Source: a virus (Duplodnaviria > Heunggongvirae > Uroviricota > Caudoviricetes). Taken from it: DNA of 64,000 nucleotides. This document shows, in pieces, positions 6,526-62,471 of the stretch (its first letter is position 1; every line of letters begins with the position of its first letter). The notes under the pieces were generated by a model. The model was not told the origin of the DNA and did no database searches. It saw nothing but the letters and a program-made list of their open reading frames with translations. A program made the position numbers and the translations under genes. The stretch lies in the IMG/VR virus record IMGVR_UViG_3300027749_005140, positions 1 through 64,000 of that record; one strand, given 5' to 3'.

Positions 6526-7707
6526 CTAAAGAATACCGTCTTTTAGTTGATTTATTAAATGATTAGTAATTTTCTGAATGATTCTACTACTAATTATTTC
6601 TGCTTGTTCTTCGTTAAAATCTGAGAACTTTTTACGTTGTTCATTCAATTCTGATTCTTTGATATCATTTAATTTTTCTTTTAAAGCTTGAATGGTTGGT
6701 GCGAACTTTCTATTTTCTAACCAAGTTATAAATTCACCTTTTATTTCGTCTATGATTGATTCCGCAGCAGGTATATAAAGTTTTCGATTCTCGAGTGTTT
6801 CGTCAGTAATTTGTGATAAGTGATCCAAATGTATTAGTGTGACACCATTTATTTCGTTTACATTTTCATTTACATTTTTCGGAATTGATAAATCTAAAAT
6901 CAATAATGGTTTTTTAATATTAAGTATTTCTTTATCAACTGTTGGTTTTTTCGATCCAGTCGCAACAATAACAACATCTACATTTTGGAGTTCTGATTTC
7001 AAATTTTCATAATCTTTTACAATAACATTTACTTTTTGAGCTAACTTTTCTGCCTTGTACTTTGTTCTATTGATTAAAGTTATGTTATCGTGTTTAGTAT
7101 GTTTTACTAAGTTTTGACAAGTATTTATTCCAATTTTTCCTGTTCCTAAAAGAAGAATATTTTTGTTTGCAATATCTTCGACATTTTTAATGATATATTG
7201 AACAGATGCAAATGCAACTGAAGTAGCCCCACTAGAAAGTTTGGTTTCTGTTTTTATTTTTTTACTGGCTTGTATAACAGAATTCACTAATCTTTCCATA
7301 AAAGAATTTACTAATCCTGATGATTTACTTTGTATAAAAGAAGATTTTAACTGACCGATAATTTCAAAATCACCTAAAATTTGACTATCTAGTCCGGCTC
7401 CTACTCGAAACATATGACTTACTGCGTCATGATCCTTGTATACATAAATAACCTCTTGTAATTCTTCAACAGTACCCTCGCTGTTATTACAAAGTAATTT
7501 GATCAACTCATATGGATGATTTGAAAAACCATATATTTCAGTTCTATTACAGGTTGAAGTAACGATTAGAGATTCAATTCCAGCTGTTTTTGCTTGTAAT
7601 AATAATCTTGATTTAGTATTAGTATCTAAAATAAACTTACCTCTCAGTTCAGCATCAGCATTCTTGTAACTTAATCCGATGGCATAGAAAGAAGTGTGCT
7701 TCGTCAT
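6526..7707 (-). CDS. hemA: glutamyl-tRNA reductase
   Basis: Hallmark STCNRTEIY motif near the N-terminus, LLGTGKIG NADPH-binding glycine-rich motif, length ~390 aa. Confidence 0.8.
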   Translation of the reverse strand: MTKHTSFYAIGLSYKNADAELRGKFILDTNTKSRLLLQAKTAGIESLIVTSTCNRTEIYGFSNHPYELIKLLCNNSEGTVEELQEVIYVYKDHDAVSHMFRVGAGLDSQILGDFEIIGQLKSSFIQSKSSGLVNSFMERLVNSVIQASKKIKTETKLSSGATSVAFASVQYIIKNVEDIANKNILLLGTGKIGINTCQNLVKHTKHDNITLINRTKYKAEKLAQKVNVIVKDYENLKSELQNVDVVIVATGSKKPTVDKEILNIKKPLLILDLSIPKNVNENVNEINGVTLIHLDHLSQITDETLENRKLYIPAAESIIDEIKGEFITWLENRKFAPTIQALKEKLNDIKESELNEQRKKFSDFNEEQAEIISSRIIQKITNHLINQLKDGIL

Positions 7708-26837: not shown

Positions 26838-27242
26838 ATGAATTTAAAAGAACAAATTAGCAAAGACTACATGATAGCTTTCAAAGAAAGAAATATCGTA
26901 GCAAAAAACTTACTTTCTGTAGTGAAAGGAGAGATCCAAACTATTGAGAAGAATACTAGTGTTGATTGTCTTTCTGATGTAGAAGTAGTTAAAATTCTTA
27001 ATAAAACTGCAAAGTCTTTAAATGAGGTTATTTCATTAAATGGTGATGAAGAGTCTAAATTACAATTAAAAATTGTAGAAGCTTTTCTTCCAACACCTTT
27101 AACTAAAGAAGATATTGTTATTAAAGTAAATGAACTAGTTGCATCTGGAATTACAAATGTTGGTGGTATTATGAAAGAGTTTGCTACTTTACATGTAGAT
27201 AGAAAAGTTGTATCAGAAGTTATTAAAGAAGTATTAGCATAA
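26838..27242 (+). CDS. GatB/YqeY-domain protein
   Basis: Colinear with YqeY (MNLKEQI..DYM.AFKERN..LLSVVKGEI.....EAFLP..LT.EDI). Confidence 0.6.
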   Translation: MNLKEQISKDYMIAFKERNIVAKNLLSVVKGEIQTIEKNTSVDCLSDVEVVKILNKTAKSLNEVISLNGDEESKLQLKIVEAFLPTPLTKEDIVIKVNELVASGITNVGGIMKEFATLHVDRKVVSEVIKEVLA

Positions 27243-28498
27243 TGAAAAATATAGTAGAAGAATTACAATGGCGTGGGTTAGTACACGATATAATACCCGG
27301 AACGGAGGCTCAACTTTTAAAAGAAGCCACCACCTCTTATATTGGTTTTGATCCAACGTCAGATTCTCTACACATTGGGAGTTTAGTTCCCATCATTCTT
27401 CTAAAACATATGAAGAATTTTGGACACAATCCTATCGCACTTGTTGGTGGGGCTACTGGTATGATCGGTGACCCCTCTGGTAAGTCAAATGAAAGAAATC
27501 TATTAGACGAACAAGAACTTAATAAAAATGTTGAAGGTATCAAAAATACTTTGACCAGATTTTTAGGTGATACTCCTGTAGTAAATAACTACGATTGGAT
27601 GTCAAAGTTTAGTTTCATAGATTTTGTAAGAGACATCGGTAAAAGAATTACTATAAATTACATGTTATCAAAACAATCTGTAAAGAACCGTATCGAAGGT
27701 GAAGGAATGTCTTTCACTGAGTTTACTTACCAGTTGATTCAAGGATACGATTTCTACCATCTAAATAAAGAGTATAACTGTTTATTACAAATGGGTGGTT
27801 CAGATCAATGGGGTAACATTACAACAGGAACTGAACTAATTCATAAAATGAATCCTGGTAGGGAAGCTTTTGCTATGACATGTCCTTTACTAACTAAATC
27901 GGATGGTTCTAAGTTCGGAAAATCTGAAGGAGGTACAAACATATGGTTAGATAAAGATAAGACCTCTGTGTACAAGTTTTACCAATTTTGGATAAGTACT
28001 GATGATAATGATGCAGAGAGATATATTAAAATCTTTACATTTTTAGATAAAGAAACTATTGATAATTTAATAGAAGAGCATAATAAAGCAAAACACTTAT
28101 TTTTGTTACAAAAAACATTAGCAAGAGAAATAACTATTATGGTTCACGGTCAACAAGAGTTTGAAAAAGCAGTAGAAGCTTCTAACATTTTATTCAATGG
28201 TGGAGATTTAAACTTACTTGATGAAGAATTATTCTTAGATATATTTGGTGGAATACCACAAGCGAAAGTTCCTATGGAAGATATTCTTGCTGGTATTACA
28301 ATGACAGACATTCTATTTAAAACAGGTTTCTTAAAATCAAATAATGAAGCTAGAAGAGCTTTAAAAGAAAACTCTGTTGCAGTAAATAAAATAAAGAGAG
28401 AGGAAGACTACATAGTAACAGATGTTGATTTGATAAATGATAAGTTTATCATACTACAAAGAGGTAAGAAAAGTTACTTCTTAGTTGAAGCATCATAG
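27242..28498 (+). CDS. tyrS: tyrosyl-tRNA synthetase
   Basis: YIGFDPTSDSLHIGSLVPI (HIGH region, here HIGS), VGGATGMIGDPSGKS, KFGKS, C-terminal S4-like domain. Confidence 0.85.
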   Translation: MKNIVEELQWRGLVHDIIPGTEAQLLKEATTSYIGFDPTSDSLHIGSLVPIILLKHMKNFGHNPIALVGGATGMIGDPSGKSNERNLLDEQELNKNVEGIKNTLTRFLGDTPVVNNYDWMSKFSFIDFVRDIGKRITINYMLSKQSVKNRIEGEGMSFTEFTYQLIQGYDFYHLNKEYNCLLQMGGSDQWGNITTGTELIHKMNPGREAFAMTCPLLTKSDGSKFGKSEGGTNIWLDKDKTSVYKFYQFWISTDDNDAERYIKIFTFLDKETIDNLIEEHNKAKHLFLLQKTLAREITIMVHGQQEFEKAVEASNILFNGGDLNLLDEELFLDIFGGIPQAKVPMEDILAGITMTDILFKTGFLKSNNEARRALKENSVAVNKIKREEDYIVTDVDLINDKFIILQRGKKSYFLVEAS

Positions 28499-29290: not shown

Positions 29291-29410
29291 TATGAAAATT
29301 AAAAATTACGGATTGGTAGTATTATTTCTAATCATTATTGGTGTAACAGAAAGTTGTGCTTCAAGATGTGGACAACAAAGAAGATACTGGAGTAAACATA
29401 GATGTGTGTA
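29291..29410 (+). CDS. small Cys-rich peptide with N-terminal hydrophobic segment (39 aa)
   Basis: MKIKNYGLVVLFLIIIGVTESCASRCGQQRRYWSKHRCV, not in the ORF track. Confidence 0.2.
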
Positions 29411-29467
29411 ATTATCAGAAAAATTAAAATAAAAACATAAAAATTAGGTAGATAAGTAAACTTTTAT

Positions 29468-29475
29468 TACTTTTG
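29468..29475 (+). promoter_or_regulatory. -7 promoter box TAnnTTTG of leader/tRNA module 1
   Basis: tacttttg followed by conserved AAAAAGAGAGAATAAACTTTTAATATATA 5' UTR element. Confidence 0.5.
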
Positions 29476-29533
29476 TACTATAAAAATAACAAAAAAACAA
29501 AAAGAGAGAATAAACTTTTAATATATAATAACA

Positions 29534-29644
29534 ATGAGAACAAATTCAATACATACAAGCTTTAGTAAGTCGTTCAAGTGGTTTAGCCACAAGTTCGGAT
29601 GTATGAGTATGTCGTTCTCAAAAGAAGATGTTATTGTAGGATAA
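29534..29644 (+). CDS. leader peptide 1 (36 aa) of tRNA array 1
   Basis: MRTNSIHTSFSKSFKWFSHKFGCMSMSFSKEDVIVG; Lys/Phe/Trp/His codons mirror the downstream tRNAs. Confidence 0.45.
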   Translation: MRTNSIHTSFSKSFKWFSHKFGCMSMSFSKEDVIVG

Positions 29645-29674
29645 TGTCATAAAAGAGAATAAAACATAAACGTA

Positions 29675-29707
29675 AACCCGAACTTAAAATTAAGTTCGGG
29701 TTTTTTT
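29675..29707 (+). terminator. rho-independent terminator/attenuator 1
   Basis: aaacccgaactt aaaatt aagttcggg + ttttttt. Confidence 0.7.
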
Positions 29708-29716
29708 ATTTTATAA

Positions 29717-29789
29717 TCCCTCTAAACATTGTTGGTGGATGTACCAGACTTTTAATCTGGGAAGGTGGTTTCGATTACCACAGGGGGAA
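29717..29789 (+). tRNA. tRNA-Lys (anticodon TTT)
   Basis: Hand fold: acceptor tccctct/aggggga, anticodon loop cttttaa, T-arm gtggt ttcgatt accac. Confidence 0.55.
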
Positions 29790-29795
29790 CAAAAT

Positions 29796-29868
29796 ACAGG
29801 TCAGCATAATGGTATGCACCAGGTCTCCAAAACCTCGGATGGAAAGGGTTCGACTCCCTTGGCTTGTG
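29796..29868 (+). tRNA. tRNA-Trp (anticodon CCA)
   Basis: Acceptor acaggtc/ggcttgt, loop ctccaaa, T-arm aaggg ttcgact ccctt; D-arm slightly atypical. Confidence 0.45.
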
Positions 29869-29875
29869 CAAAAAA

Positions 29876-29948
29876 GTGGAGGTAGCTCAGTTGGTAGAGC
29901 ACTACCCTGAAGAGGTAGGTGTCGCGGGTTCGAGCCCCGCTCTCCACA
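29876..29948 (+). tRNA. tRNA-Phe (anticodon GAA)
   Basis: Acceptor gtggagg/tctccac, D-arm tagctcagttggtagagc, loop ctgaaga, T-arm gcggg ttcgagc cccgc. Confidence 0.65.
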
Positions 29949-29955
29949 CAAATAT

Positions 29956-30044
29956 GGTGTTTGTAACCGGTAAAGGCAGCCGACCAGATTGTGAATCTGG
30001 AATGAATTAATTTTCTAATGCGGGTTCGAATCCCGTCTCACACC
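29956..30044 (+). tRNA. tRNA-His-like (anticodon GTG) with G-1 and expanded variable region
   Basis: Extra 5' G, anticodon loop ttgtgaa, T-arm gcggg ttcgaat cccgt; 19-nt variable region and two acceptor mismatches. Possibly degenerate. Confidence 0.35.
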
Positions 30045-30062
30045 CTAAATTCTCCCTCTAAA

Positions 30063-30135
30063 CATTGTTGGTGGATGTACCAGACTTTTAATCTGGGAAG
30101 GTGGTTTCGATTACCACAGAGGGAACTAAGTCTTT
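30063..30135 (+). tRNA. tRNA-Lys (anticodon TTT), second copy
   Basis: Near-identical (1 nt difference) to the copy at 29717..29789. Confidence 0.55.
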
Positions 30136-30195
30136 GTAACTTATTATAAAGGAGCCACTAACTTATTAATATATAAATAAAAATTATTATTATAT

Positions 30196-31233
30196 ATGAT
30201 AAGTTGTAAATTTTGTAAAAAAGTATATATAGGACGTAATAAAAATAAAGATGTTTTAATACATGAGTCCCATTGTATTCTAAATACAGATAGAGTACCA
30301 TATATATGTAATATATGTGATATGGAGTTTGATAAAAGACATTCTTTAATAGGACATAAAAGTCATTGCGGTAATTTAAAAGTTAGGAAAAAACGGATTA
30401 CAAAAGAGAAAGTAATTAAAATACACAAATGTAAATACTGTGATTCAATATTCGAAAATGGTTATAAATTGGGCGGACATGTATCACATTGTGATAGAGA
30501 TCCAGAATATGAAACTAAGAGGAGAAAAATGTGTGATAATATCTCTTTTCTTAATAAAGGAAAGAAATTATCAGATGAAACTAGAAAAAAAATATCAAAT
30601 AGTAGAAGAGAATATTTAAAAAATAATCCAGATAAAGTTCCCTATCTATTAAACCATAGTAGAAATGAATCATATCCTGAGAAATACTTTACTGATGTTT
30701 TTTTAGATAGAAATATTAGTGTAATAAAATCTTACAGAATTGGATTATATGAATTAGATTTTTGTATTTTAGATAAAAAAATAGATATAGAAATCGATGG
30801 TGGTCAACACTATTTAGATAATAAAATTATTGAAAGTGATAAAAGAAGAAATAAATATCTAGAAGATTTAGGTTGGGATATAATTAGAATAAAATGGAGT
30901 GATTATCAATTGTTGGATAAAGATTCTAAAAGAGAATTTATTGATAATATAATCTATTACATAAATGGTCTGGTAAAAACTAAACCAACATTTGAAATAT
31001 TAGATAATAAAAATTATTGTAAATGTGGTATAGAAATATACAAATGTTCTAAAATGTGTTCTAAATGTGATTCATTTAGACAAAGAAAAGTTGAAAGACC
31101 TTCATTAGAGCAAATTTTAAAAGATATAAAAGAAACAAACTATGTCTTGACCGGTAAAAAATATGGTGTTAGTGATAACACTATAAGAAAGTGGATAAGA
31201 CAATATAATGCGGATTTAGCTGAGACGGTTTAG
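30196..31233 (+). CDS. homing-endonuclease-like protein: 3x C2H2 zinc fingers + DUF559/Vsr-like PD-(D/E)xK nuclease + C-terminal HTH
   Basis: CxxC..HxxxH x3; YELDF..IDIEIDGGQHY..D.RR..L..GWDIIRIKW core; stop codon lies inside the D-loop of the following tRNA. Confidence 0.55.
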   Translation: MISCKFCKKVYIGRNKNKDVLIHESHCILNTDRVPYICNICDMEFDKRHSLIGHKSHCGNLKVRKKRITKEKVIKIHKCKYCDSIFENGYKLGGHVSHCDRDPEYETKRRKMCDNISFLNKGKKLSDETRKKISNSRREYLKNNPDKVPYLLNHSRNESYPEKYFTDVFLDRNISVIKSYRIGLYELDFCILDKKIDIEIDGGQHYLDNKIIESDKRRNKYLEDLGWDIIRIKWSDYQLLDKDSKREFIDNIIYYINGLVKTKPTFEILDNKNYCKCGIEIYKCSKMCSKCDSFRQRKVERPSLEQILKDIKETNYVLTGKKYGVSDNTIRKWIRQYNADLAETV

Positions 31234-31281
31234 CGTATGGTTGAAAGCCATAAGAGGTCAATTCGATTTTGACAATCCGCA
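31210..31281 (+). tRNA. tRNA-Phe (anticodon GAA), second gene
   Basis: Acceptor gcggatt/aatccgc, loop ttgaaag, T-arm gtcaa ttcgatt ttgac; 5' 24 nt overlap the endonuclease ORF. Confidence 0.5.
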
Positions 31282-31285
31282 CAAA

Positions 31286-31422
31286 TAGAAAGTAGCTCAA
31301 TTGGTAGAGCACGTAATCATACTTAGTCAGTCTTTCTCTAAGAAACTCTCTTAGTAGCAATGAAATAAGTTACTTCGCTCTGTTAAAGCCGTGGTTGTGG
31401 GTTCGAGTCCCACCTTTCTATC
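31286..31422 (+). tRNA. tRNA-like gene with ~65-nt internal insertion
   Basis: Perfect acceptor tagaaag/ctttcta, canonical D-arm tagctcaattggtagagc and T-arm gtggg ttcgagt cccac, but 87 nt between D- and T-arms. Confidence 0.3.
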
Positions 31423-31464
31423 AGATAAATAAAAACAAAGAATAAAATTTTAATATATAGTAAT

Positions 31465-31542
31465 ATGAAAACAATTATCACAACATCGTCAAGTTCGTCT
31501 AGTCGCTCAAGTAATTTGAGGGAGGTTCTGTTGTGCTCATAA
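31465..31542 (+). CDS. leader peptide 5 (25 aa), Ser/Arg-rich
   Basis: MKTIITTSSSSSSRSSNLREVLLCS; upstream of tRNA-Arg and three tRNA-Ser. Confidence 0.45.
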   Translation: MKTIITTSSSSSSRSSNLREVLLCS

Positions 31543-31564
31543 TTGATATAAAAAATTAGTATGA

Positions 31565-31609
31565 AACCCACAGACTTCAAAGTTTGTGGGTCTTTTGTTT
31601 TTAATTGGT
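31565..31609 (+). terminator. rho-independent terminator/attenuator 5
   Basis: aaacccacagact tcaa agtttgtgggtc + ttttgttttt. Confidence 0.65.
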
Positions 31610-31678
31610 TCCATCGTTTAACGGATAGGATAGGTCGCTACGAACGATCAGGTGGGGGTTCGATTCCCTCTGGAATCA
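31607..31678 (+). tRNA. tRNA-Arg (anticodon ACG)
   Basis: Acceptor ggttcca/tggaatc, anticodon stem ggtcg/cgatc, loop ctacgaa. Confidence 0.5.
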
Positions 31679-31687
31679 CAAATATAT

Positions 31688-31770
31688 GGAGGGTACCGCT
31701 AAGGTAGCAAACTGGGCTTGAACCCCAGGGGTACGGGCAACTGTACGGGTTTCGATTACTCTACCCTCTT
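31688..31770 (+). tRNA. tRNA-Ser (anticodon TGA), class II
   Basis: Acceptor ggagggt/accctct, stem ctggg/cccag, loop cttgaac, long variable arm. Confidence 0.5.
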
Positions 31771-31776
31771 CAGAAT

Positions 31777-31862
31777 AGTGAGTAAGCCTTGATGGTGATA
31801 GGGTCTGCCTGGAAAGCAGTACGTACGTTTAGATGTATAGGGTTCGATTCCCTTGCTCACTA
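31777..31862 (+). tRNA. tRNA-Ser (anticodon GGA), class II
   Basis: Acceptor agtgagt/gctcact, loop ctggaaa, long variable arm, T-loop ttcgatt. Confidence 0.45.
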
Positions 31863-31870
31863 CAAAATAT

Positions 31871-31956
31871 GGAGGATGAATTCACTGGGTAGTGGACGCA
31901 GTTTGCTAAACTGTTGGTGCGTTAAATCGCATTGGGATCGAGACCTACTTCCTCCG
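31871..31956 (+). tRNA. tRNA-Ser (anticodon GCT), class II
   Basis: Acceptor ggaggat/ttcctcc, stem gcagt/actgt, loop ttgctaa, variable hairpin tgcg ttaaat cgca. Confidence 0.4.
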
Positions 31957-31960
31957 CATA

Positions 31961-31999
31961 AAAGAAAAGACTTTGATTTATCAAAGTCTTTTTTATTTT
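31961..31999. terminator. bidirectional terminator
   Basis: aaaagactttgat ttatc aaagtctttttt between the tRNA array (+) and the tail fibre gene (-). Confidence 0.65.
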
Positions 32000-34900
32000 T
32001 ATAATAACTCTATCCAAGTTGTATCTGGACAGAAATATAATAGACTTGTATCAACACAATAACCAATTACTCTAACAACTTCACCAGTTCCTGTAGGTTG
32101 AACTTCTTCAAACTCACCATCTGTTACTGATAAGAATTGTACTGTACCAAGAGTACCCATCGCCATATATATAGGTGTTGTATCAAATCTAGAGAATCCT
32201 CTTAATAACATACCATCAGAAGAGCTAGTTCCCAATGCAATTGCTAATAATCCTGATGAAGTTGCTTCTACTGAAGCACTTGCTAATGTCCAATCACCAC
32301 CATCATAATAGTATATTGAACCTGGAGTTAAACCAGTAGTAACATTACCAAAATAAACAACATCTCCTGAAGTCATATTATTATCAGGTAAAGTAAATGT
32401 TTGATTACCTTTTACTTCTAAATCACAATTTGGCGAAACTGAGGTTCCCGTAAATCCTATTGCAACATTTCCTTTAAGAATAGTTTTTTCTATATTATCA
32501 TTACCTAAAGTAACTGTATTAGAACCATTACCAAGTGCGGTTGCACCAATAACAATTTCATTACTTACATTAAAATTTACTGAATTTGCATTATATCCAA
32601 TATATACAGAGTCATTTGTATCAGCTAAATATCCATAACTACCAGCAAGACTTCCAATTCCTATATTACGTGCACCACCAAAAACATTATTTAATGCCTG
32701 ATAACCAAGTGCAGTGTTATCATCACCGGCTGGTTTTATACTTGCTATGTTTATTGAAAATCCTGATCCAGAACCTGGTATTTGATAATACTGAATACCG
32801 GTTTGTATACCAAATACAACTGTTTCATCAGGTACTACACTTCCTTCTGAAGTTAAAGTAACAGAACTTACAGTTCCACCAGCACCAACAACTATAGTAA
32901 CTTGAGGATAATCTCCAACATTATTACCAGGGTAGTAAGATGAACCACCTATACCAAATAAAACAATGTGTGGCCATGTACCTGGAGTATAACCGCCACC
33001 CGCAGAAAATGTTGCCGCTAAAGCTGTTACTCTGGTTGTAGAATTTCTCAATGTTTCTACACCAACCGCAGTATTAAAGTTACCTGTATTATTTTTATAT
33101 AGTGAAGAGTATCCAATTGCCACACTATTAGTTGCGGTTGTATTATTATATGATGAATTTTCACCAATCGCAGTATTTTGAAACCCAATTGTATTATTCC
33201 TTAATGAGTTTGCACCAAGTGCACTATTAGAATTACCTGTTGTATTAACATATAGTGAGTAGTTACCGATTGCGATATTATTTATACCTGTTGTATTTGA
33301 ATATAATGATTCAAGACCTAATCCTATATTATAACTACTTTTAGTATTAAGTAATGATCTATAACCAATTGCAATATTATAATTAGAAGAAGTTGCCGTA
33401 TATAGTGAATCAAAACCAATTGCGATATTATAAGAACCTGTTTTATTAAAATATAGTGAATCTGAACCCAATCCTACATTATAAGAACCAGTTGTATTAT
33501 TATACAATGAACCATATCCAAATGCAGTATTCGTATAACCAGATGTATTATTATACAATGAATTTACACCAACTGCAGTATTATAACTAGATGTATTATT
33601 ATACAATGAATTTGCACCAAGTGCACTATTAGAATTACCTATCAAATTATGATATAATGTAGCATATCCAATAGCGGTATTATTATAACCAGTTGTATTT
33701 AAACTTGATGAGCTTGCACCAATCGCAATATTATTATAACCAGTTGTATTTGATAGTAACGAATTGTGTCCAAATGCCGCATTATCATTACCGATATTTG
33801 ATTTTAATGAATTATAACCAAATGATGTATTACGAACAACTGCAAGATTAATGGTTATATAAAAACCAGAACCAGAATCAAAATTAGCAGTAAGTTGTGT
33901 TGATGAACTAGTAAATCCAGTACCATTAGTTACGATTACAACTTCTTGTACATAACCATCCTCAACATATATGTTTACTATTGGGTAAGTTAGTGGTGCT
34001 GGACCAGAATATAATTCCATCTCTATACCAGAATACCAACCATCATCATAACTTGAACCACCTATAATACTAGCCACACTAATACTCCCTGATGGAGAAT
34101 CCTTTTGTGAACCATAACCAAATGCGGTATTATAAGTAGATTTTGATCCACCTTGATTATAAACATTACCAGACTCATCAACTATTAAGGAAACAATTCC
34201 ATCATATGATGAAACTATAAATCTATCATTTGTATCAAAATCACCAGTTCCAACTTTTAAAACACCAGTTCTTACATTAGAATAATCTGTTATAGTAACA
34301 TTACCTGATACCGTATCACCATCTGGTGTAGAAATGAATTTAAACTCATCCATTGATTCATCCCAAATAAAAGCTTGAGTCGCACCAATACCACGATCTA
34401 CAAATAAACCTGAGTCTAATGTTGGTGTTCCTGACTGACTTGCAGCCAATACGATAATAGGATCTTTAACTATTAAATTCTCACTACTTATTGTCGTTGT
34501 TGAACCTTTAACCACTAAATTACCATCAATAGTAATAGTATTACCACTTTGGAAAGACATACTATATTCACTTCCTAATAAAGTTGACTGTCTATCATAG
34601 AAATAATTATTCAATATTAAATTATCTTGTAATGAATTTATATCAGTATTCATATTGAATTGAGCAGATGAATTATTCATTGTTATATTAGTTTGTAAAA
34701 TACCTCTAAAATTTAGATTCTCATTATAAGAGTTTACTATATTTTGACTCGCAATACCAACTCCAGTCGATGTACTATATACATTACCCCATTGAAATAC
34801 TTTTATTGGATCATATAATCCAACATCATCTACCCAATAACTAATATTATCTGCATTTGTACTTACTGTATTTATACCTCTTTCACTTCTATAAATGATT

Positions 34901-36390
34901 TTATCAGTAGCTCTGTCATACTTAATTTTATCATAACTAATTCTATAATATAATCCATTTGTATAAGGAATAACAGTCCACTCTGTTGGATTTAAGAAAA
35001 AGATAGTCAATGGGGATGAAGTATTAGTTCCACTATTATTAGACCATGCTCTACCACCCCAATAAACAACGGAAGCTGTTGCATAAGATGATGAAGTACC
35101 ACTCCAAATTCTATATCCTTCAACTGTTTGATCATATTTAGGATTATAGAATTTACCCTCACCAACATCATTTAATATTCCTTGTGAGTTTGTTGTTAAG
35201 TATATTTCTGTACCACCATATAAATCTGTATCAACACCAGTTATTCTATAGGTGCTAGATGATGAGAATGATGAAAGTCCAGCAAATGTTGCTGCGGTTA
35301 CAGTAATAACTGGTGTTCCAACTCCGGATGACCAACTAAGATTACCAGCACCATCTGTTTTTATAACTTGTCCGGATGTTCCATCTGATAGCGGCAATTT
35401 ATATTGATTATTAATATCTACTACACCACCTAGATAAACGGTATCAGAACTATCTACAGTTAAAAACTGTCCTCCAACAACAACGGTATTATTTATACTT
35501 GGATCAAATGTTGTATTTGATGTTGATATAAAAGTATTGACTGTTGTTGTTGATGTTTCAGTATCTCCAGATGGACCAGTAACACTATCTGTAATTATAA
35601 TACCATTGTTATTAAGCATTGTTGAACTACCTGCTTCCAATATACCAATAACTTTTGTACCTGATGACATATAAACCTCGTTATTACTATTAAATTTTAA
35701 TTGTCCATCTCCGATAGTTCCTTTTACATAACCACCATCTTTTATTATTAGATTAGGTGTATAGACAGAGTTTGATTGTGTTCCAGTAATACCAGAACCA
35801 CCAATAATAACACTATTAGTAACCGTATTTGAAAATCTTGATCCGTTTGATGATATAAATACAGGAACTCTATTACCACTTGCTCTAGAAGCAGTTGATG
35901 TTGTAAATTCTAAAACTCTTGTAGTTCCTAGCTGTAAGTAGGAATTATTATTTTGTAATAAAAATTGATTCACCCCAAAGTTTAAACGAATGTCTGTTGT
36001 ACTCATTTGTATAGATGAACTTAATCCTCTTAATTGAATAGTAGTATCATTCATAGTTAAAGTAGAACCGGTTGTTAAATTAGAGGATGATAATTCTACA
36101 TAATTACCAGGACTACCATTATCTAATCTTAAACTAGCAGAACCACCAGATGACTTAATACCAGAATTTACATCTAAATATATTGAATTAGTACCAGTTG
36201 TATTACCAATAGATAATGTTTGTGATAAAGAACCTATTCCTCCACCGGAACCAATTGGTGTGATAACACCTTGGTCATCTTTTTGTTTTAAAACTCCATC
36301 TAATGTATCATATGCAACTAGAAACCCACCAATTGAAGGTGTGGCCGCAGTTATCATATTTACTCTACTTTCAAAAAGAACTAATGCCAT
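31999..36390 (-). CDS. giant tail fibre protein (1463 aa) with tandem ~15-aa N-x-(A/S)-(I/V/L)-G repeats
   Basis: About 25 consecutive NTxGYNNIAIG / SLYNNTxG repeats (beta-helix/fibre-like); Gly/Ser/Thr/Asn-rich throughout. Confidence 0.5.
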   Translation of the reverse strand: MALVLFESRVNMITAATPSIGGFLVAYDTLDGVLKQKDDQGVITPIGSGGGIGSLSQTLSIGNTTGTNSIYLDVNSGIKSSGGSASLRLDNGSPGNYVELSSSNLTTGSTLTMNDTTIQLRGLSSSIQMSTTDIRLNFGVNQFLLQNNNSYLQLGTTRVLEFTTSTASRASGNRVPVFISSNGSRFSNTVTNSVIIGGSGITGTQSNSVYTPNLIIKDGGYVKGTIGDGQLKFNSNNEVYMSSGTKVIGILEAGSSTMLNNNGIIITDSVTGPSGDTETSTTTVNTFISTSNTTFDPSINNTVVVGGQFLTVDSSDTVYLGGVVDINNQYKLPLSDGTSGQVIKTDGAGNLSWSSGVGTPVITVTAATFAGLSSFSSSSTYRITGVDTDLYGGTEIYLTTNSQGILNDVGEGKFYNPKYDQTVEGYRIWSGTSSSYATASVVYWGGRAWSNNSGTNTSSPLTIFFLNPTEWTVIPYTNGLYYRISYDKIKYDRATDKIIYRSERGINTVSTNADNISYWVDDVGLYDPIKVFQWGNVYSTSTGVGIASQNIVNSYNENLNFRGILQTNITMNNSSAQFNMNTDINSLQDNLILNNYFYDRQSTLLGSEYSMSFQSGNTITIDGNLVVKGSTTTISSENLIVKDPIIVLAASQSGTPTLDSGLFVDRGIGATQAFIWDESMDEFKFISTPDGDTVSGNVTITDYSNVRTGVLKVGTGDFDTNDRFIVSSYDGIVSLIVDESGNVYNQGGSKSTYNTAFGYGSQKDSPSGSISVASIIGGSSYDDGWYSGIEMELYSGPAPLTYPIVNIYVEDGYVQEVVIVTNGTGFTSSSTQLTANFDSGSGFYITINLAVVRNTSFGYNSLKSNIGNDNAAFGHNSLLSNTTGYNNIAIGASSSSLNTTGYNNTAIGYATLYHNLIGNSNSALGANSLYNNTSSYNTAVGVNSLYNNTSGYTNTAFGYGSLYNNTTGSYNVGLGSDSLYFNKTGSYNIAIGFDSLYTATSSNYNIAIGYRSLLNTKSSYNIGLGLESLYSNTTGINNIAIGNYSLYVNTTGNSNSALGANSLRNNTIGFQNTAIGENSSYNNTTATNSVAIGYSSLYKNNTGNFNTAVGVETLRNSTTRVTALAATFSAGGGYTPGTWPHIVLFGIGGSSYYPGNNVGDYPQVTIVVGAGGTVSSVTLTSEGSVVPDETVVFGIQTGIQYYQIPGSGSGFSINIASIKPAGDDNTALGYQALNNVFGGARNIGIGSLAGSYGYLADTNDSVYIGYNANSVNFNVSNEIVIGATALGNGSNTVTLGNDNIEKTILKGNVAIGFTGTSVSPNCDLEVKGNQTFTLPDNNMTSGDVVYFGNVTTGLTPGSIYYYDGGDWTLASASVEATSSGLLAIALGTSSSDGMLLRGFSRFDTTPIYMAMGTLGTVQFLSVTDGEFEEVQPTGTGEVVRVIGYCVDTSLLYFCPDTTWIELL
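33040..33850 (-). repeat. tandem ~45-nt coding repeats inside the tail fibre gene
   Basis: Periodic recurrence of ttatacaatgaatttgcaccaa.. units at nucleotide level. Confidence 0.55.
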
Positions 36391-37413: not shown

Positions 37414-38118
37414 ATGAAAATGAAAATGAATTTAGAAAAATTTAACTGGGGGTGGATGTATACAGAAGATGAGTCACATAAAAATCACATCATTTACGAA
37501 ATATTTGAAAGTAAAATATATGAAAAAATATTTGAGGTAGAATCTGGAGATATAGTGTTAGATGTAGGTGCCAGTATTGGTCCATTCACATATTCAATTT
37601 TAGATAAGAAACCTAAACACATATATTGTTTAGAACCAAGTGAATTACAGTTTCCAACTTTAATATCAAATACAGTAGGTCATCCAGTAACACCTATTTT
37701 AAAGGGTATTTCAAATATAAATTCATACGTTGATACCGAATTTCTTCATAAATTGAATTTACTTTTAGGTAATGATGAATCAAAAATGGAAGGCATTACA
37801 TTCAAAAAATTAAGACAAGTTTATAACTTAGAAAAAATTGACTTTTTAAAAACCGATTGTGAAGGTGGTGAATATGATATTTTTAATGAAGAAAATTTTG
37901 AATTTATTAAAAATAATGTTAAGAAAATATCAGGTGAGTGGCATTTAGGAAATACTGAGCTTAAAGAAAAATTCAGATACTTTAGAGACAATTACCTAGT
38001 TCAATTTGATAAAATAGAAGTATTCTCTGTAGATAATATTGATATTAAGTGGGACTTATGGAACGATCACTTTATTGATTATTACACCGAAATATTAATT
38101 CATATAGATAATCGTTAA
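37414..38118 (+). CDS. FkbM-family SAM-dependent methyltransferase
   Basis: VLDVGASIGPFT motif I and DFLKTDCEGGEYDIF typical of FkbM-family MTases. Confidence 0.55.
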   Translation: MKMKMNLEKFNWGWMYTEDESHKNHIIYEIFESKIYEKIFEVESGDIVLDVGASIGPFTYSILDKKPKHIYCLEPSELQFPTLISNTVGHPVTPILKGISNINSYVDTEFLHKLNLLLGNDESKMEGITFKKLRQVYNLEKIDFLKTDCEGGEYDIFNEENFEFIKNNVKKISGEWHLGNTELKEKFRYFRDNYLVQFDKIEVFSVDNIDIKWDLWNDHFIDYYTEILIHIDNR

Positions 38119-38181
38119 AAATATTTCAAAAATATCAAAAGGGAGAAAAACTTTTTAATATATAGAACTATAAACATATAT

Positions 38182-38251
38182 CGCGTTAAAGTGTAAAGGT
38201 TGCATGAGACTTTCATAAGGTCTACGGGGTGGTTCGAATCCACGCTACGCT
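38182..38251 (+). tRNA. tRNA-like, anticodon CAT (poorly folding, possibly degenerate)
   Basis: Anticodon arm agact ttcataa ggtct and T-loop ggttcgaatcc; acceptor and D stems weak. Confidence 0.3.
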
Positions 38252-38298
38252 ACAAAAGAGATAGGTAACGATTTAGATACAAGTCTCAAAAAATATAT

Positions 38299-38371
38299 CG
38301 CGGGATAGAGCAGTAGGCAGCTCGTGTGGCTCATAACCATAAGGTCGGAGGTTCGAGTCCTTCTCCCGCTA
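38299..38371 (+). tRNA. tRNA-Met/Ile2-like (anticodon CAT) with C1:U72 mismatch
   Basis: Acceptor cgcggga/tcccgct, D-arm gagcagtaggcagctc, stem tgtgg/ccata, loop ctcataa, T-arm ggagg ttcgagt ccttc. Confidence 0.55.
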
Positions 38372-38420
38372 CTAAAAGAATAAAAAATTAAAAAAGATTT
38401 GGTGGTTTAAAAACTTATCG

Positions 38421-38428
38421 TATCTTTG
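38421..38428 (+). promoter_or_regulatory. -7 promoter box TAnnTTTG of leader/tRNA module 3
   Basis: tatctttg upstream of leader ORF 3. Confidence 0.45.
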
Positions 38429-38496
38429 TACTCACAAGATGAGAGTCACATAAGTGACTAGAAGAATTAAAAACAACAATTTAAAAAATAGAAAAA

Positions 38497-38598
38497 ATGA
38501 CAACAATTACTAACATAACAATAGCTATCGAAGCCATAGGCGGGTATGAAGCGGGGTATATTATACCATCGGTCAGAAGCGTTATGTCTATAAAGTAA
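38497..38598 (+). CDS. leader peptide 3 (33 aa), Ile/Thr/Gly/Glu/Tyr/Ala-rich
   Basis: MTTITNITIAIEAIGGYEAGYIIPSVRSVMSIK; resembles thr-operon leader; codons ATA, GAA, GGC/GGG, TAT, GCN match the downstream tRNAs. Confidence 0.45.
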   Translation: MTTITNITIAIEAIGGYEAGYIIPSVRSVMSIK

Positions 38599-38627
38599 TG
38601 AGTTGAAAAAAACATTATTATATAACA

Positions 38628-38667
38628 AACCCAATCTGACTTAAAAATCAGATTGGGTTTTTTTATT
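38628..38667 (+). terminator. rho-independent terminator/attenuator 3
   Basis: aacccaatctga cttaaaaa tcagattgggtt + tttttt. Confidence 0.7.
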
Positions 38668-38682
38668 GAATTAAAAGTACAA

Positions 38683-38767
38683 GGGAGTACGCCGGAGTTG
38701 GAGAGCCGGAGCGGTCTGTAACACCGTTGGCATTACGCCTGAGTAGGTTCGAGTCCTACTACTCTCA
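38683..38767 (+). tRNA. tRNA-Tyr (anticodon GTA), class II
   Basis: Acceptor gggagta/tactctc, stem gcggt/accgt, loop ctgtaac, variable arm, T-arm gtagg ttcgagt cctac. Confidence 0.6.
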
Positions 38768-38773
38768 CAAAAT

Positions 38774-38841
38774 AAAAGTGACTATGTGCGGGTCGAAAGA
38801 CTTGAAAAGCCAACCGAAATAGTCTAACGTGGTCACTTTTT
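38774..38841 (+). other. extended imperfect hairpin flanked by A-run and T-run
   Basis: aaaagtgactat ... atagtc taacgt ggtcactttttt; not a tRNA (no T-loop). Confidence 0.3.
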
Positions 38842-38848
38842 AGAATAT

Positions 38849-38921
38849 GGTGTATTCGTCTAGTGGTAAGGATTACGCTTTTTCAAAGCGGAGGACGTCG
38901 GTTCGAATCCGACATACACTA
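38849..38921 (+). tRNA. tRNA-Glu (anticodon TTC)
   Basis: Acceptor ggtgtat/atacact, D-arm tcgtctagtggtaaggat (Glu-like), loop ttttcaa, T-arm gtcgg ttcgaat ccgac. Confidence 0.5.
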
Positions 38922-38925
38922 CAAA

Positions 38926-38987
38926 TGTAAGTAGAGCTCCGGTGACTTCTACCTAACCGGGCATTGTGCTTGAGTAGAAGACTTACA
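38926..38987 (+). other. nested hairpin element between tRNA genes
   Basis: tgtaagt..cttctac..gtagaag..acttaca nested inverted repeats. Confidence 0.25.
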
Positions 38988-38991
38988 AAAT

Positions 38992-39066
38992 GCTGCTATC
39001 GTCTAACGGTAGGACAACATCTTCTCAAGGTGTGAGATACGGGTTCGATCCCCGTTAGCAGCACCA
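38992..39066 (+). tRNA. tRNA-Glu (anticodon CTC) with encoded CCA
   Basis: Perfect acceptor gctgcta/tagcagc, loop ttctcaa, T-arm acggg ttcgatc cccgt, followed by a cca. Confidence 0.55.
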
Positions 39067-39182
39067 AACAGATACTTGAGTGCAAGCAAGTTATAGTATC
39101 AGTCGTTAGGTCCTTGCAGACAGTGAACGGTGGTCCGAATGTCATTATTCGGTGGTGGATACCAGGCAACTCCATCATATAT

Positions 39183-39254
39183 GATCCGGTCTTCTAATGG
39201 TCAGGAAGCAAGGTTTTCATCCTTGTAATCAGGGTTCGATTCCCTGTCGGATTA
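39183..39254 (+). tRNA. tRNA-like, anticodon TTC (Glu-like; G1:U72 and G7:U66 wobbles)
   Basis: Acceptor gatccgg/tcggatt, stem caagg/ccttg, loop ttttcat, T-arm caggg ttcgatt ccctg. Confidence 0.4.
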
Positions 39255-39264
39255 CAAAAAAAAT

Positions 39265-39338
39265 TGGTAAGTAGCTTAGACGGTAGAAGCATCTGTCTTA
39301 TACACAGAAGATAGTGGGTTCGATACCCACCTTACCAA
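39265..39338 (+). tRNA. tRNA-Ile (anticodon TAT)
   Basis: Acceptor tggtaag/cttacca, stem tctgt/acaga, loop cttatac, T-arm gtggg ttcgata cccac. Confidence 0.55.
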
Positions 39339-39345
39339 CAAAATC

Positions 39346-39419
39346 GCGGGAGTCGTATAATGGCTCGATTATGCTGGCTTTCCACGTCAGAGACGAGGGT
39401 TCGATTCCCTTCTCCCGCA
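39346..39419 (+). tRNA. tRNA-Gly (anticodon TCC)
   Basis: Acceptor gcgggag/ctcccgc, stem ctggc/gtcag, loop tttccac, T-arm gaggg ttcgatt ccctt. Confidence 0.55.
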
Positions 39420-39428
39420 CCGCATAAT

Positions 39429-39502
39429 GCAAATGTATATCAATTGGTAGATAGTCTCGTTGCCAACGAGAAGGCTTGCGGGTTCGAGCCCCGTCATTTG
39501 CT
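39429..39502 (+). tRNA. tRNA-Gly (anticodon GCC)
   Basis: Acceptor gcaaatg/catttgc, stem tctcg/cgaga, loop ttgccaa. Confidence 0.6.
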
Positions 39503-39600
39503 CAGTAGAAGTGGTTTAAGTTATAGAAATCTCTATATCTAAGACGTTAGATGTAAATTTTTATACACCACTTTAATTATAAAGATAGTAGTAATATAAA

Positions 39601-39700
39601 GCGTTACTTCGTATTCAAACGACTATTATAGGTTCGAATCCTATTGTCCGCACAAATAATTAAATTGCGGATATAGTGTAATGGTAGCACAGTAAAATAC
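39601..39700 (+). other. two orphan tRNA halves: a 3' half (T-arm + acceptor 3') lying upstream of a 5' half (acceptor 5' + D-arm); their acceptor strands are mutually complementary
   Basis: ...ataggttcgaatcctat tgtccgc a (39628-39652) and gcggata ta gtgtaatggtagcac (39667-39690); tgtccgc pairs perfectly with gcggata. Confidence 0.25.
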
Positions 39701-39728
39701 GCTTAATAAACTTTCTCTATCTTATTTT

Positions 39729-39800
39729 GGGGCTATCGTATAATGGCTATTACACAGGGTTTGCAACTCTGATATTCCGGATCGTCCCCGGATAGCTCCA
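39729..39800 (+). tRNA. tRNA-Ala-like (anticodon TGC) with non-canonical T-loop
   Basis: Acceptor ggggcta/tagctcc (G3:U70 present), stem caggg/ctctg, loop tttgcaa, T-arm tccgg atcgtcc ccgga. Confidence 0.45.
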
Positions 39801-39977
39801 CAAAAAATAAAAAATAGATATGAAAACTAAAGAACAGTCGCTGGACGCATTTTAGTCACAGAAGAATATAAATCTTACTGTGACGGTAATAAAACAGAAA
39901 GAATTAAAAGATCATTAGTAAAAAATGGTTCACGTAATGATAGAAAATTACAAAAATATTCTGATAAATTTAACAAA

Positions 39978-61194: not shown

Positions 61195-61245
61195 CGGAAA
61201 TAAGAAATAAAAACAAAAAAATTAGGTAAAGCAGAAAACTTTTAT

Positions 61246-61253
61246 TACTTTTG
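61246..61253 (+). promoter_or_regulatory. -7 promoter box TAnnTTTG of leader/tRNA module 2
   Basis: tacttttg + conserved AAACAAAAAGAGAGAATAA 5' UTR element. Confidence 0.5.
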
Positions 61254-61309
61254 TACTATAAAAATAACAAATAAACAAAAAGAGAGAATAACATCTTAAT
61301 ATATACAAT

Positions 61310-61390
61310 AATGAAAACAACTAATCTAAATATTAACTTAACGCTGAATGTCTTATGTCTAAGACGTGAACCGGGTTTTGCCTTATTTAG
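61310..61390 (+). CDS. leader peptide 2 (26 aa), Leu/Asn/Arg-rich
   Basis: MKTTNLNINLTLNVLCLRREPGFALI; codons CTA, TTA x3, CTG, CTT, AGA, CGT match the downstream Arg(TCT) and Leu tRNAs. Confidence 0.45.
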
Positions 61391-61439
61391 AGCAAATGAT
61401 AATGTTATTGGATAACATATTATAACTAAATATACAAAC

Positions 61440-61472
61440 AAAACCCGAAATCTAAAAGTTTCGGGTTTTTTT
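61440..61472 (+). terminator. rho-independent terminator/attenuator 2
   Basis: aaacccgaaa tctaaaa gtttcgggtt + ttttttg. Confidence 0.7.
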
Positions 61473-61492
61473 GTGGAAAAAAATAAATAATT

Positions 61493-61565
61493 GGCTCTAT
61501 GATGTAATGGATTAGCATATAAATCTTCTAAATTTATCGTATAGGTTCGAATCCTATTAGAGTCA
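61493..61565 (+). tRNA. tRNA-Arg (anticodon TCT)
   Basis: Acceptor ggctcta/tagagtc, D-stem atgt/gcat, stem taaat/attta, loop cttctaa, T-arm atagg ttcgaat cctat. Confidence 0.6.
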
Positions 61566-61571
61566 CAAAAA

Positions 61572-61645
61572 GTCTGGGTGGTGAAACTGGAAAACACAAC
61601 AAGTTTAAGCCTTGTAAGCTGCGGGTTCGACTCCCGTCCCAGATA
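61572..61645 (+). tRNA. tRNA-Leu-like (anticodon TAA) with class-I architecture (short variable loop)
   Basis: Acceptor gtctggg/cccagat, stem acaag/cttgt, loop tttaagc, T-arm gcggg ttcgact cccgt. Confidence 0.45.
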
Positions 61646-61651
61646 CAAATT

Positions 61652-61733
61652 GCAGAGGTGATGTAATGTAACCATGCTGGTCTAAGAAGCCAGTGTCCGA
61701 AAGGACGTGCGGGTTCGAGTCCCGCTCTCGGTA
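61652..61733 (+). tRNA. tRNA-Leu (anticodon AAG by hand fold), class II
   Basis: Acceptor gcagagg/tctcggt (one mismatch), stem ctggt/gccag, loop ctaagaa, variable arm gtcc gaaa ggac. Confidence 0.45.
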
Positions 61734-61735
61734 CA

Positions 61736-62002
61736 ATGAAAGAAATAGATTATATACAGTACACATCATATACATTATTATCAAGTGGTAATGTATTTAA
61801 GGTAAATTCAGTTATGCCTTTACAAAGTTTAGACAAACACTTGAATGAAAGTACAAACTTAATTATGTTTGTAGTTCATAATATAAAGTGTAATGATAAA
61901 GAAGTAATGGTTTATAATAGAGATCTATTTAGATTTACATATGGATCAAAAGAATGTCCTGAAATGATTATGAAAATGAAACATTCACATATATTAGAAT
62001 AA
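61736..62002 (+). CDS. hypothetical protein embedded in tRNA array 3
   Basis: 88-aa ORF between tRNA genes. Confidence 0.3.
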   Translation: MKEIDYIQYTSYTLLSSGNVFKVNSVMPLQSLDKHLNESTNLIMFVVHNIKCNDKEVMVYNRDLFRFTYGSKECPEMIMKMKHSHILE

Positions 62003-62004
62003 TG

Positions 62005-62086
62005 TCGGAGTGATGAAATGGTAGACGTGCTAGCCTCAAAAGTTAGTGTCCAAGTGACGTGTGGGTTCGACTCCCACCTTCGATAC
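62005..62086 (+). tRNA. tRNA-Leu (anticodon CAA), class II
   Basis: Acceptor gtcggag/cttcgat, stem ctagc/gttag, loop ctcaaaa, variable arm gtcc aagt gac. Confidence 0.6.
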
Positions 62087-62095
62087 AAAAATATG

Positions 62096-62178: not shown

Positions 62179-62220
62179 AAAATAATACTAATAAAATTAG
62201 GTAGATTAAAAAACTAATAG

Positions 62221-62404: not shown

Positions 62405-62430
62405 ACTCATATATTATATACAATTTATAA

Positions 62431-62466: not shown

Positions 62467-62471
62467 TATAT

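Follow-up and report, generated by a model that had tools for sequence, protein, structure and literature searches.

Probable leader-peptide attenuators in front of the tRNA operons of a megaphage with Bacteroidota-type promoters

Nearly every block of transfer RNA (tRNA) genes in a 64,000-nucleotide (nt) stretch of viral DNA (positions 1 to 64,000 of IMG/VR record IMGVR_UViG_3300027749_005140, Caudoviricetes; hereafter the window) is preceded by a transcription terminator and, in front of it, by a short leader open reading frame (ORF) whose codons match the anticodons encoded downstream. Judged by their sequence, these units are probably ribosome-mediated, i.e. leader-peptide, transcription attenuators fronting the tRNA operons of a megaphage with Bacteroidota-type promoters. 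The layout occurs five times in the window, each time as a promoter, an ORF of 25-36 codons, a strong intrinsic terminator and a tRNA array, all on the plus strand, with leader ORFs starting at 29534, 31465, 38497, 61311 and 62315 (modules 1-5); the only terminators in the window with a 25-36-codon ORF just 5' of them are those of the five tRNA modules. The original prediction, made for module 1 and extended to four further copies of the same architecture, had read the unit as classical ribosome-mediated attenuation, and every sequence-level prediction of this reading that could be tested supports it. What the sequence itself establishes is the anatomy, the correspondence between codons and anticodons, and the presence and covariation of an alternative RNA pairing.

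Module 1 illustrates the arrangement. Its -7 box TACTTTTG (29468-29475), a TAnnTTTG element of the Bacteroidota sigma-A class that was read directly, is located at -66 relative to the ATG and is followed by a copy of a conserved 27-nt motif of the 5' untranslated region (UTR), AAAGAGAGAATAAACTTTTAATATATA (29501-29527), and by the predicted 36-codon ORF, MRTNSIHTSFSKSFKWFSHKFGCMSMSFSKEDVIVG (29534-29644), with its regulatory codons at approximately 7-21. The codon makeup of this leader is as had been claimed (Lys AAG/AAA, Phe TTT/TTC, Trp TGG, His CAT/CAC), and Lys, Trp, Phe and His account for 10 of the 17 residues at positions 5-21 (binomial P=6e-5). The strong terminator expected about 30 nt beyond the ORF starts 29 nt past the stop codon (29674-29710, hairpin 29674-29703) and has a 13-base-pair (bp) stem, a 4-nt loop and a run of seven Ts; the array behind it (29717-30126), found again by ARAGORN and Rfam, consists of the anticipated Lys(TTT), Trp(CCA), Phe(GAA), His(GTG, 89 nt) and Lys(TTT) genes. 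Homologues of leader 1 (MTTNSTHKNFSKSHKWFS... and MTTNRTHKHFSKSSKWFS...) precede His/Phe/Trp/Lys arrays in the megaphage genome LR745206 and in IMG/VR contigs.

Leaders and their tRNA arrays

Re-annotation of the tRNAs leaves each leader matched to its own array. ARAGORN found 29 tRNA genes in the window, all on the plus strand and in three regions, and Rfam together with relaxed ARAGORN added at least six more, including three Ser tRNAs (UGA, GGA, GCU; 31688-31957) missed by default ARAGORN and two Ile(GAU)-like genes (62648-62728 and 62938-62997) with anticodons read by eye. The Ser tRNAs gained in this way by array 2 match the codons TCG/TCA, TCT and AGT of leader 2, which, with CGC, address all four anticodons of that array. 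The leader core FSKSFKWFSHKF stands before Lys/Trp/Phe/His tRNAs in module 1, SSSSSSRSS before Arg(ACG) and three Ser tRNAs in module 2, IAIEAIGGYEAGYII before Tyr/Glu/Ile/Gly/Ala tRNAs in module 3, NLNINLTLNVLCLRR before Arg(UCU) and four Leu tRNAs in module 4, and NTVNINVITITNCVNNTT before Asn/Ile/Val/Cys/Thr tRNAs in module 5. The true pairing of the five leaders with their arrays ranks first among 120 permutations, and the binomial P values of the individual leaders for residues 5-21, calculated against the proteome composition of the window itself, range from 2e-3 to 1e-9 (Ser/Arg at 10/17 in leader 2, P=2e-6; Tyr/Glu/Ile/Gly/Ala at 14/17 in leader 3, P=1e-5; Asn/Ile/Val/Cys/Thr at 17/17 in leader 5, P=1e-9).

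The relatives of the window found by BLAST are uncultured megaphages only. When IMG/VR was scanned with a DNA pattern built on the UTR and the first leader codons, 100 loci were obtained, and modules were called with a script combining ARAGORN, a finder of hairpins followed by T runs, and a search for ORFs with their stop codon shortly before the hairpin. This yielded approximately 50 modules, of which 43 are non-redundant, from the window, from LR745206 (635 kb, belonging to a group of environmental megaphages of >630 kb; PMC9723777) and from about 30 IMG/VR contigs, several of them 260-600 kb long; 120 loci of bacterial genomes bearing the same DNA pattern, which served as a negative control, contained zero modules. 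In LR745206, MTTNSTHKNFSKSHKWFS... precedes His/Phe/Trp tRNAs and MKTINNTSKSSSRSSS... precedes Arg(ACG) and Ser tRNAs. The collection also holds pairings absent from the window: MTTFTQQYQQQQ... (QQYQQQQ) before two Gln tRNAs, NPQPQDQD before Gln/Pro/Asp, MKTINTHTHPRNPR... (HTHPRNPR) before two Pro tRNAs, YYYEAYEE before Glu/Tyr, SRSRSSRS before Ser/Arg and IAIIGGGAGAG before Ile(UAU)/Gly.

Over the 43 modules, the fraction of leader residues served by the leader's own array is 0.391, versus 0.187 with permuted arrays (z=11.4); the fraction of cognate codons, with wobble allowed, is 0.334 versus 0.146 (z=11.2); and 92.5% of array anticodons have a cognate codon in their own leader, versus 55% after permutation (z=8.1). 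In each of these three tests none of 100,000 permutations reached the observed value. The match extends to the choice among synonymous codons, in that 12 of the 15 Arg codons in leaders before Arg(ACG) are CGN and 16 of the 19 before Arg(UCU) are AGR (Fisher 3e-4), and the use of ATA versus ATY tracks the presence of Ile(UAU) versus Ile(GAU) downstream (p=0.027). Matching residues are found mainly at leader positions 6-18, directly 5' of the antiterminator strand described below, with a peak at positions 10-18 (match fraction 0.56-0.74) and a tail below 0.2.

Are the leaders maintained as reading frames? An ATG-initiated ORF of at least 19 codons that ends before the terminator is present at essentially all junctions, defined as terminators no more than 70 nt 5' of a tRNA, versus 12.5% of shuffled sequences, in which the ORF was allowed to end 8-60 nt before the terminator. 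The leaders have 19-43 codons across the 43 modules, their N-termini are similar among modules (MKT or MTT), and in diverged phages, where the original prediction had asked for conservation of the ORFs beyond that of the nucleotide sequence, their lengths differ by whole codons. At differing codons of related leaders, the amino acid is kept in 23 of 62 cases in the core and in 7 of 47 in the tail.

The terminators and their alternative pairing

The terminator stems are GC-cored, 11-13 bp long and followed by T runs; across the 43 modules they start 18-39 nt past the leader stop codon, and a gap of 5-61 nt separates them from the first tRNA. The complementarity that had been pointed out in module 1 between a leader segment and the 5' arm of the terminator is exact, with AAGTTCGG (29591-29598) facing CCGAACTT. 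The antiterminator 5' strand to which this segment belongs, CAAGTTCGGA, covers codons H19-G22 (29590-29599) and has the terminator arm at 29677-29685 as its partner; the predicted duplex has an energy of -11.9 kcal/mol versus -6.6 in shuffles (p=0.013). Similar values are obtained for module 4 (CCGGGTTTTG, 61371-61380; -11.5 versus -5.0 kcal/mol in shuffles, p=0.003) and module 5 (CTTCGGGTA, 62376-62384; -11.2 versus -5.2 kcal/mol, p=0.003). In all seven modules examined, the terminator 5' arm pairs, before the 3' arm exists, with a segment inside the ORF just 3' of the regulatory codons, and this pairing closes a long, imperfect hairpin at its base, the stop codon being located close to the tip.

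In the whole set, 27 of the 43 modules have an arm/leader duplex stronger than that of their dinucleotide shuffles (mean z=-2.8, Fisher 3e-28). An RNAalifold analysis of a MAFFT alignment of 13 antiterminator regions returned no consensus pairs, the module types being misaligned, and a swap test among modules was used in its place: the duplex of an arm with its own leader averages -10.95 kcal/mol versus -7.52 with leaders exchanged between modules (z=-10.2, 0/100,000). Between module types the two strands change together, as in CUCUGAGGG/CCCUCAGA, AUCUAGGGG/CCCCUAGA and UGAGUUUGGA/UCCAAACUC.

The response of the pairing to the position of a ribosome was examined by folding before the 3' arm is made and by constrained energy differences, which replaced masked equilibrium folds that did not discriminate. 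In the 43 modules the antiterminator contributes on average -4.6 kcal/mol when no ribosome is present, -10.7 when one sits at codon 11 and -3.4 when it has reached the stop codon, a three-state pattern of the kind an attenuator should show. In 40 of the 43 this gain is at least 3 kcal/mol stronger in the stalled state than at the stop, a dependence that has to be taken as a consistency check and not as independent evidence, because the mask at the stop weakens any hairpin with its 5' strand in the ORF. The duplex of module 2 is weak by comparison with shuffles (p=0.54), yet its gain runs from 0 (no ribosome) through -9.5 (stalled) to -2.0 kcal/mol (at the stop). The antiterminator of module 3 is weak and ambiguous (p=0.6), with GGUCAGA:UCUGACU as the candidate pairing.

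A candidate mechanism and its competitors

How might such a module operate? Host RNA polymerase would start at the TAnnTTTG promoter and transcribe the short ORF, codons 6-18 of which would sample the codons decoded by the tRNAs encoded downstream. With aminoacyl-tRNAs plentiful, the ribosome would reach the stop codon and melt the long imperfect antiterminator hairpin, the 5' strand of which is supplied by the 3' portion of the ORF; this would let the 11-13-bp terminator form, and transcription would end before the tRNAs. Should any of the sampled tRNAs be scarce, the ribosome would stall on the regulatory codons and leave the antiterminator strand free to pair with the emerging terminator 5' arm, so that polymerase would read through into the array. 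In the absence of a ribosome, the antiterminator strand would be partly sequestered by the upstream leader, and termination would be favoured. Since the tRNAs of the operon would relieve the stall, each module would constitute a negative-feedback loop on isoacceptor-specific decoding capacity. We infer translation of the leaders, a switch that acts kinetically, and tRNA supply as the limiting variable in vivo. Because codon choice is isoacceptor-specific, tRNA species rather than amino acids would be the relevant variable, and the same choice favours tRNA abundance over charging as the signal, a distinction that sequence cannot show.

The host machinery could run such a switch, because the promoters conform to the Bacteroidota sigma-A type, for which TAnnTTTG is the -7 box consensus, and because leader-peptide attenuation has been inferred for amino-acid operons in Flavobacterium (PMC7366714, PMC9723704). 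We would tentatively go one step further and suggest, as a possibility somewhat short of even, that megaphages run a multi-channel, isoacceptor-resolved tRNA homeostat in which each operon is on only when its own codons are hard to decode. If so, host tRNAs lost to host shut-off, to mismatched codon usage or to anticodon-nuclease defences would be replaced on demand, and the cost of constitutive tRNA overproduction would be avoided.

A number of observations weigh against attenuation. On the statistical side, the scan pattern that brought in most modules itself prescribes part of the UTR and the first codons, the modules share an evolutionary history and their P values therefore exaggerate independence, and some leaders contain residues for which their array has no tRNA (Ser/Thr in leader 1, Asn/Thr/Val in leader 4). 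On the structural side, the duplex is not individually better than shuffles in 16 of the 43 modules, modules 2 and 3 of the window among them, and the contrast between ribosome states is partly inherent in the masking scheme. At equilibrium, the full terminator hairpin prevails under every ribosome mask (P=0.90-0.98) and is about 6 kcal/mol stabler than the antiterminator (-16.6 versus -10.7); the switch must therefore be kinetic, with an antiterminator that would have to win during transcription, something that folding calculations are unable to demonstrate. For modules 1 and 4, furthermore, 33-45 nt separate the antiterminator strand from the stop codon 3' of it, which puts the strand beyond the cover of one terminating ribosome, and the model therefore needs melting of nested helices, trailing ribosomes, or both. 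Finally, the mechanism depends on coupling of transcription to translation in the host, and the host of these uncultivated phages is deduced from promoter type only.

Could the same hardware answer to a different signal? Amino-acid starvation or a general slowdown of translation might be what is sensed, giving the phage a stringent-like cue. Sensing of aminoacyl-tRNA by a leader ORF is established for the trp and his attenuators, and a leader ORF alone cannot separate low tRNA from low charging; that the phage leaders sample many amino acids at once would also suit a starvation signal. We nonetheless consider this unlikely, because the regulated products are tRNAs, which bring no relief of amino-acid starvation, because the codons follow the downstream isoacceptor (Arg AGA versus CGN, Ile ATA versus ATY), as expected for the sensing of tRNA species but not of amino acids, and because each leader samples only the set of its own operon.

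Sensing might also be direct, without translation, if leader triplets paired with the anticodons of uncharged tRNAs and stabilized the antiterminator in the manner of a T-box. Triplets cognate to the downstream anticodons do adjoin the antiterminator/terminator pair, but they all share one frame within an ATG-to-stop ORF, which is found in about 100% of modules against the 12.5% expected, the MKT/MTT N-termini are conserved, and up to 17 cognate codons follow one another without interruption. The module regions have neither an Rfam T-box match nor a specifier-loop or T-box motif architecture, and we regard direct sensing as very improbable.

The conserved ORFs with their similar N-termini could, alternatively, encode functional micropeptides or couple translation to RNA stability or processing, while the terminators merely insulate the arrays. 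To this we give little credence: the composition of the peptides varies with the downstream tRNA set instead of being conserved as in a protein family, the leader tails are poorly conserved, the antiterminator covaries with the terminator, and an unregulated insulating terminator directly 5' of its own promoter's genes would silence them. Chance co-occurrence of AT-rich ORFs, terminators of upstream genes and tRNA arrays, for which the low sequence complexity of an AT-rich genome is the only argument, is hardly conceivable, being refuted by the permutation and shuffle tests, by recurrence of the modules in diverged contigs and by their absence from the 120 bacterial control loci.

The remaining modules and their surroundings

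The 27-nt A-rich UTR motif, AAAGRGAGAATAAANTTTTAATATATA, which ends in TTTTAATATATA, has five copies in the window at up to three mismatches, with 0 expected. Four stand before leaders (modules 1, 2, 4 and 5), the fifth before a leaderless Met pair, and there are none elsewhere in the window. Its identity as a general phage promoter or ribosome-binding site was considered and rejected: being confined to tRNA modules, with one copy lacking an ORF, it fits neither a general promoter nor a signal purely for translation initiation.

Module 2 opens with this motif (31433-31459) and is probably co-transcribed from upstream, since it has no -7 box of its own. Its 25-codon leader MKTIITTSSSSSSRSSNLREVLLCS (31465-31542; codons TCG TCA AGT TCG TCT AGT CGC TCA AGT) is followed by a terminator with an 11-bp stem and a T-rich tail (31566-31600) and by array 2 (31607-31957), composed of Arg(ACG) at 31607-31679, Ser(TGA) at 31688-31771, Ser(GGA) at 31777-31863 and Ser(GCT) at 31871-31957, with an operon terminator behind it (31963-31994). 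The leaderless unit (38138-38372) comprises the UTR motif (38138-38164), a Met-like tRNA (38182-38252) and tRNA-Met(CAT) (38299-38372), with no ORF and no terminator. Among arrays with the UTR motif, this Met(CAT)-type pair alone lacks a leader and an attenuator; the Met tRNAs of other contigs lie within arrays whose leaders hold internal Met codons (MNLNMNMN...). Module 3 has the -7 box TATCTTTG (38421-38428), a 33-codon leader MTTITNITIAIEAIGGYEAGYIIPSVRSVMSIK (38497-38598), a terminator with a 13-bp stem and seven Ts (38627-38667), and an array (38683-39801) of Tyr(GTA), Glu(TTC), Glu(CTC), Glu(TTC), Ile(TAT), Gly(TCC), Gly(GCC) and Ala(TGC) genes plus unassigned spacers.

Module 4 combines a TAnnTTTG box (61246-61253), the UTR motif (61279-61305), a 34-codon leader MKTTNLNINLTLNVLCLRREPGFALFRANDNVIG (61311-61415) and a terminator with a 12-bp stem and a T run (61440-61476) with an array of Arg(TCT), Leu(TAA), Leu(AAG), Leu(CAA) and Leu(TAG) genes (61493-62178), in which an ORF of 89 codons (61735-62003) is embedded between Leu(AAG) and Leu(CAA). 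In module 5, the -7 box TATATTTG (62221-62228) and the UTR motif (62283-62309) precede a 29-codon leader MKTNTVNINVITITNCVNNTTSGKRLCIV (62315-62404) and a terminator with a 13-bp stem and a T-rich tail (62429-62466); array 5 (62472-63347) holds two Asn(GTT) genes, the first Ile(GAT)-like gene (62648-62728), Val(AAC), Val(TAC), the second Ile(GAT)-like gene (62938-62997), two Cys(GCA) genes, Thr(GGT) and Thr(TGT), and an operon terminator lies behind it (63351-63382). Leader 4 fits the amino acids of array 5 (13/31) better than its own Arg/Leu set (9/31). The Asn/Thr/Val/Cys/Ile set of module 5 is among the amino acids sampled by leader 4, no terminator was found between array 4 and module 5, and one combined leader serves one combined array in other contigs; it appears from this that modules split and merge in evolution, and the relation of leader 4 to array 5 suggests the split of an ancestral module.

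Several tRNA genes are unusually long. Inserts bring to 82-89 nt the genes for His (29957-30045), Asn (62552-62640), Cys (63008-63096) and Thr (63266-63347), which belong to types normally short in the variable region, and a Met(CAT) gene (31286-31422) is called only if a 56-nt insert is permitted at 37/38, the canonical intron site. An ORF of 345 amino acids (30196-31233) lies between array 1 and a tRNA-Phe gene (31210-31282), with which it overlaps by 24 nt; it matches DUF559/MTES_1575 restriction-endonuclease-like and NUMOD3 domains, has Cys/His-rich repeats and looks like a homing-endonuclease insertion within the tRNA operon. Converging on the end of array 2, on the minus strand, is an ORF of 1463 amino acids (31999-36390) with long runs of short Asn/Thr/Ser/Gly-rich repeats such as NTTGYNN and SLYNNTTG, the product of which is probably a fibre- or adhesin-like structural protein. 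The phage also encodes a tyrosyl-tRNA synthetase (27242-28498; Pfam tRNA-synt_1b, 3e-78); a leader or attenuator in front of this gene was sought and dismissed, none being present and the gene abutting the preceding ORF. In LR745206, a mini-ORF of nine codons, four of them for Lys (MKTKLKYKR), and a following 12-bp hairpin without a clear T run (6865-6925) lie, within a larger array, immediately 5' of four Lys tRNAs and may represent a reduced internal attenuator.

Comparison with known attenuators and phage tRNA genes

The tRNAs of phages are usually seen as passively co-transcribed supplements to codon usage and, lately, as replacements for tRNAs destroyed by host defences. If the leaders do poll their own codons, the phage would measure decoding capacity isoacceptor by isoacceptor and feed the result back on tRNA synthesis, which bears on which tRNAs become limiting in infection, on whether tRNA-targeting defences induce phage tRNAs, and on the coupling of transcription to translation in Bacteroidota. 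The modules might also serve, as compact, natural and orthogonal sensors of single tRNA species, in synthetic biology and recoded genomes.

Large clustered tRNA sets in big, AT-rich genomes are a feature of T4, the mycobacteriophages and huge phages or megaphages such as LR745206, LR756502 and Mar_Mega_1 (PMC9723777). Full-text literature searches brought up no report of attenuators, or of leader ORFs with matching codons, before phage tRNA arrays, and the earlier statement that no tRNA-supply-sensing attenuator has been described stands as far as these searches show; nor did we come upon such a feedback scheme for tRNA genes of any kind, whether of cells or of viruses. A Phe-rich leader at the Escherichia coli tRNA-Phe genes was considered as a precedent and rejected on the evidence of pheV, where the promoter directly precedes the tRNA; the literature search offered no support. 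Membership in the Rfam leader families was likewise rejected: the weak, sub-threshold matches to His_leader (RF00514) and Thr_leader (RF00506), at the ORF 3' end and terminator of leader 2 (25.6 bits versus a gathering threshold of 49) and at the post-stop spacer and terminator of leader 4 (26.9 versus 55 bits), reflect a shared shape of hairpin plus U tract and not sequence homology.

Among better-studied systems, T-box riboswitches (RF00230) likewise tie expression to a specific tRNA through a choice between terminator and antiterminator and through codon-anticodon specificity. In contrast to the phage modules, however, they bind the tRNA directly, are untranslated, carry a specifier loop and a T-box sequence, both conserved, and act on genes for aminoacyl-tRNA synthetases or amino-acid metabolism; no Rfam T-box match was obtained in the module regions, whether at the gathering score or at looser cut-offs (E<=1 in 29400-32100; E<=0.1 in 38100-39900 and in 61200-63420). 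A closer parallel in logic is offered by pheST with its pheM leader and by other attenuated aminoacyl-tRNA synthetase genes, where a component of translation is controlled by stalling on the codons of its own amino acid; the output of pheST is an enzyme that raises charging, whereas that of a phage module would be the tRNA itself.

The classical leader-peptide attenuators are those of the enterobacterial trp, his, leu, thr, ilvGMEDA and pheA systems (PMC1183508, PMC3082878). Like them, the phage modules appear to combine a short leader bearing regulatory codons, mutually exclusive antiterminator and terminator hairpins, and an intrinsic terminator before the regulated genes, and the three ribosome states (none, stalled, at the stop codon) are common to them and to the phage model. 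The antiterminators differ in form, being a compact 2:3 stem in the classical systems and, in the phage, an extended imperfect hairpin that carries the stop codon close to its tip. The phage modules would, moreover, regulate tRNAs and not enzymes, and the product would act directly on the step that is sensed because the regulated genes are tRNAs. Their leaders sample 2-8 amino acids with codons that are interspersed and not tandem, and do so at isoacceptor resolution; and the system belongs to a phage, which employs it in parallel for almost all of its tRNAs. If the attenuators work as their sequences suggest, it is these four traits, i.e. tRNA targets, several amino acids read at isoacceptor resolution, a phage origin and parallel use, that would be new relative to the attenuators known so far.

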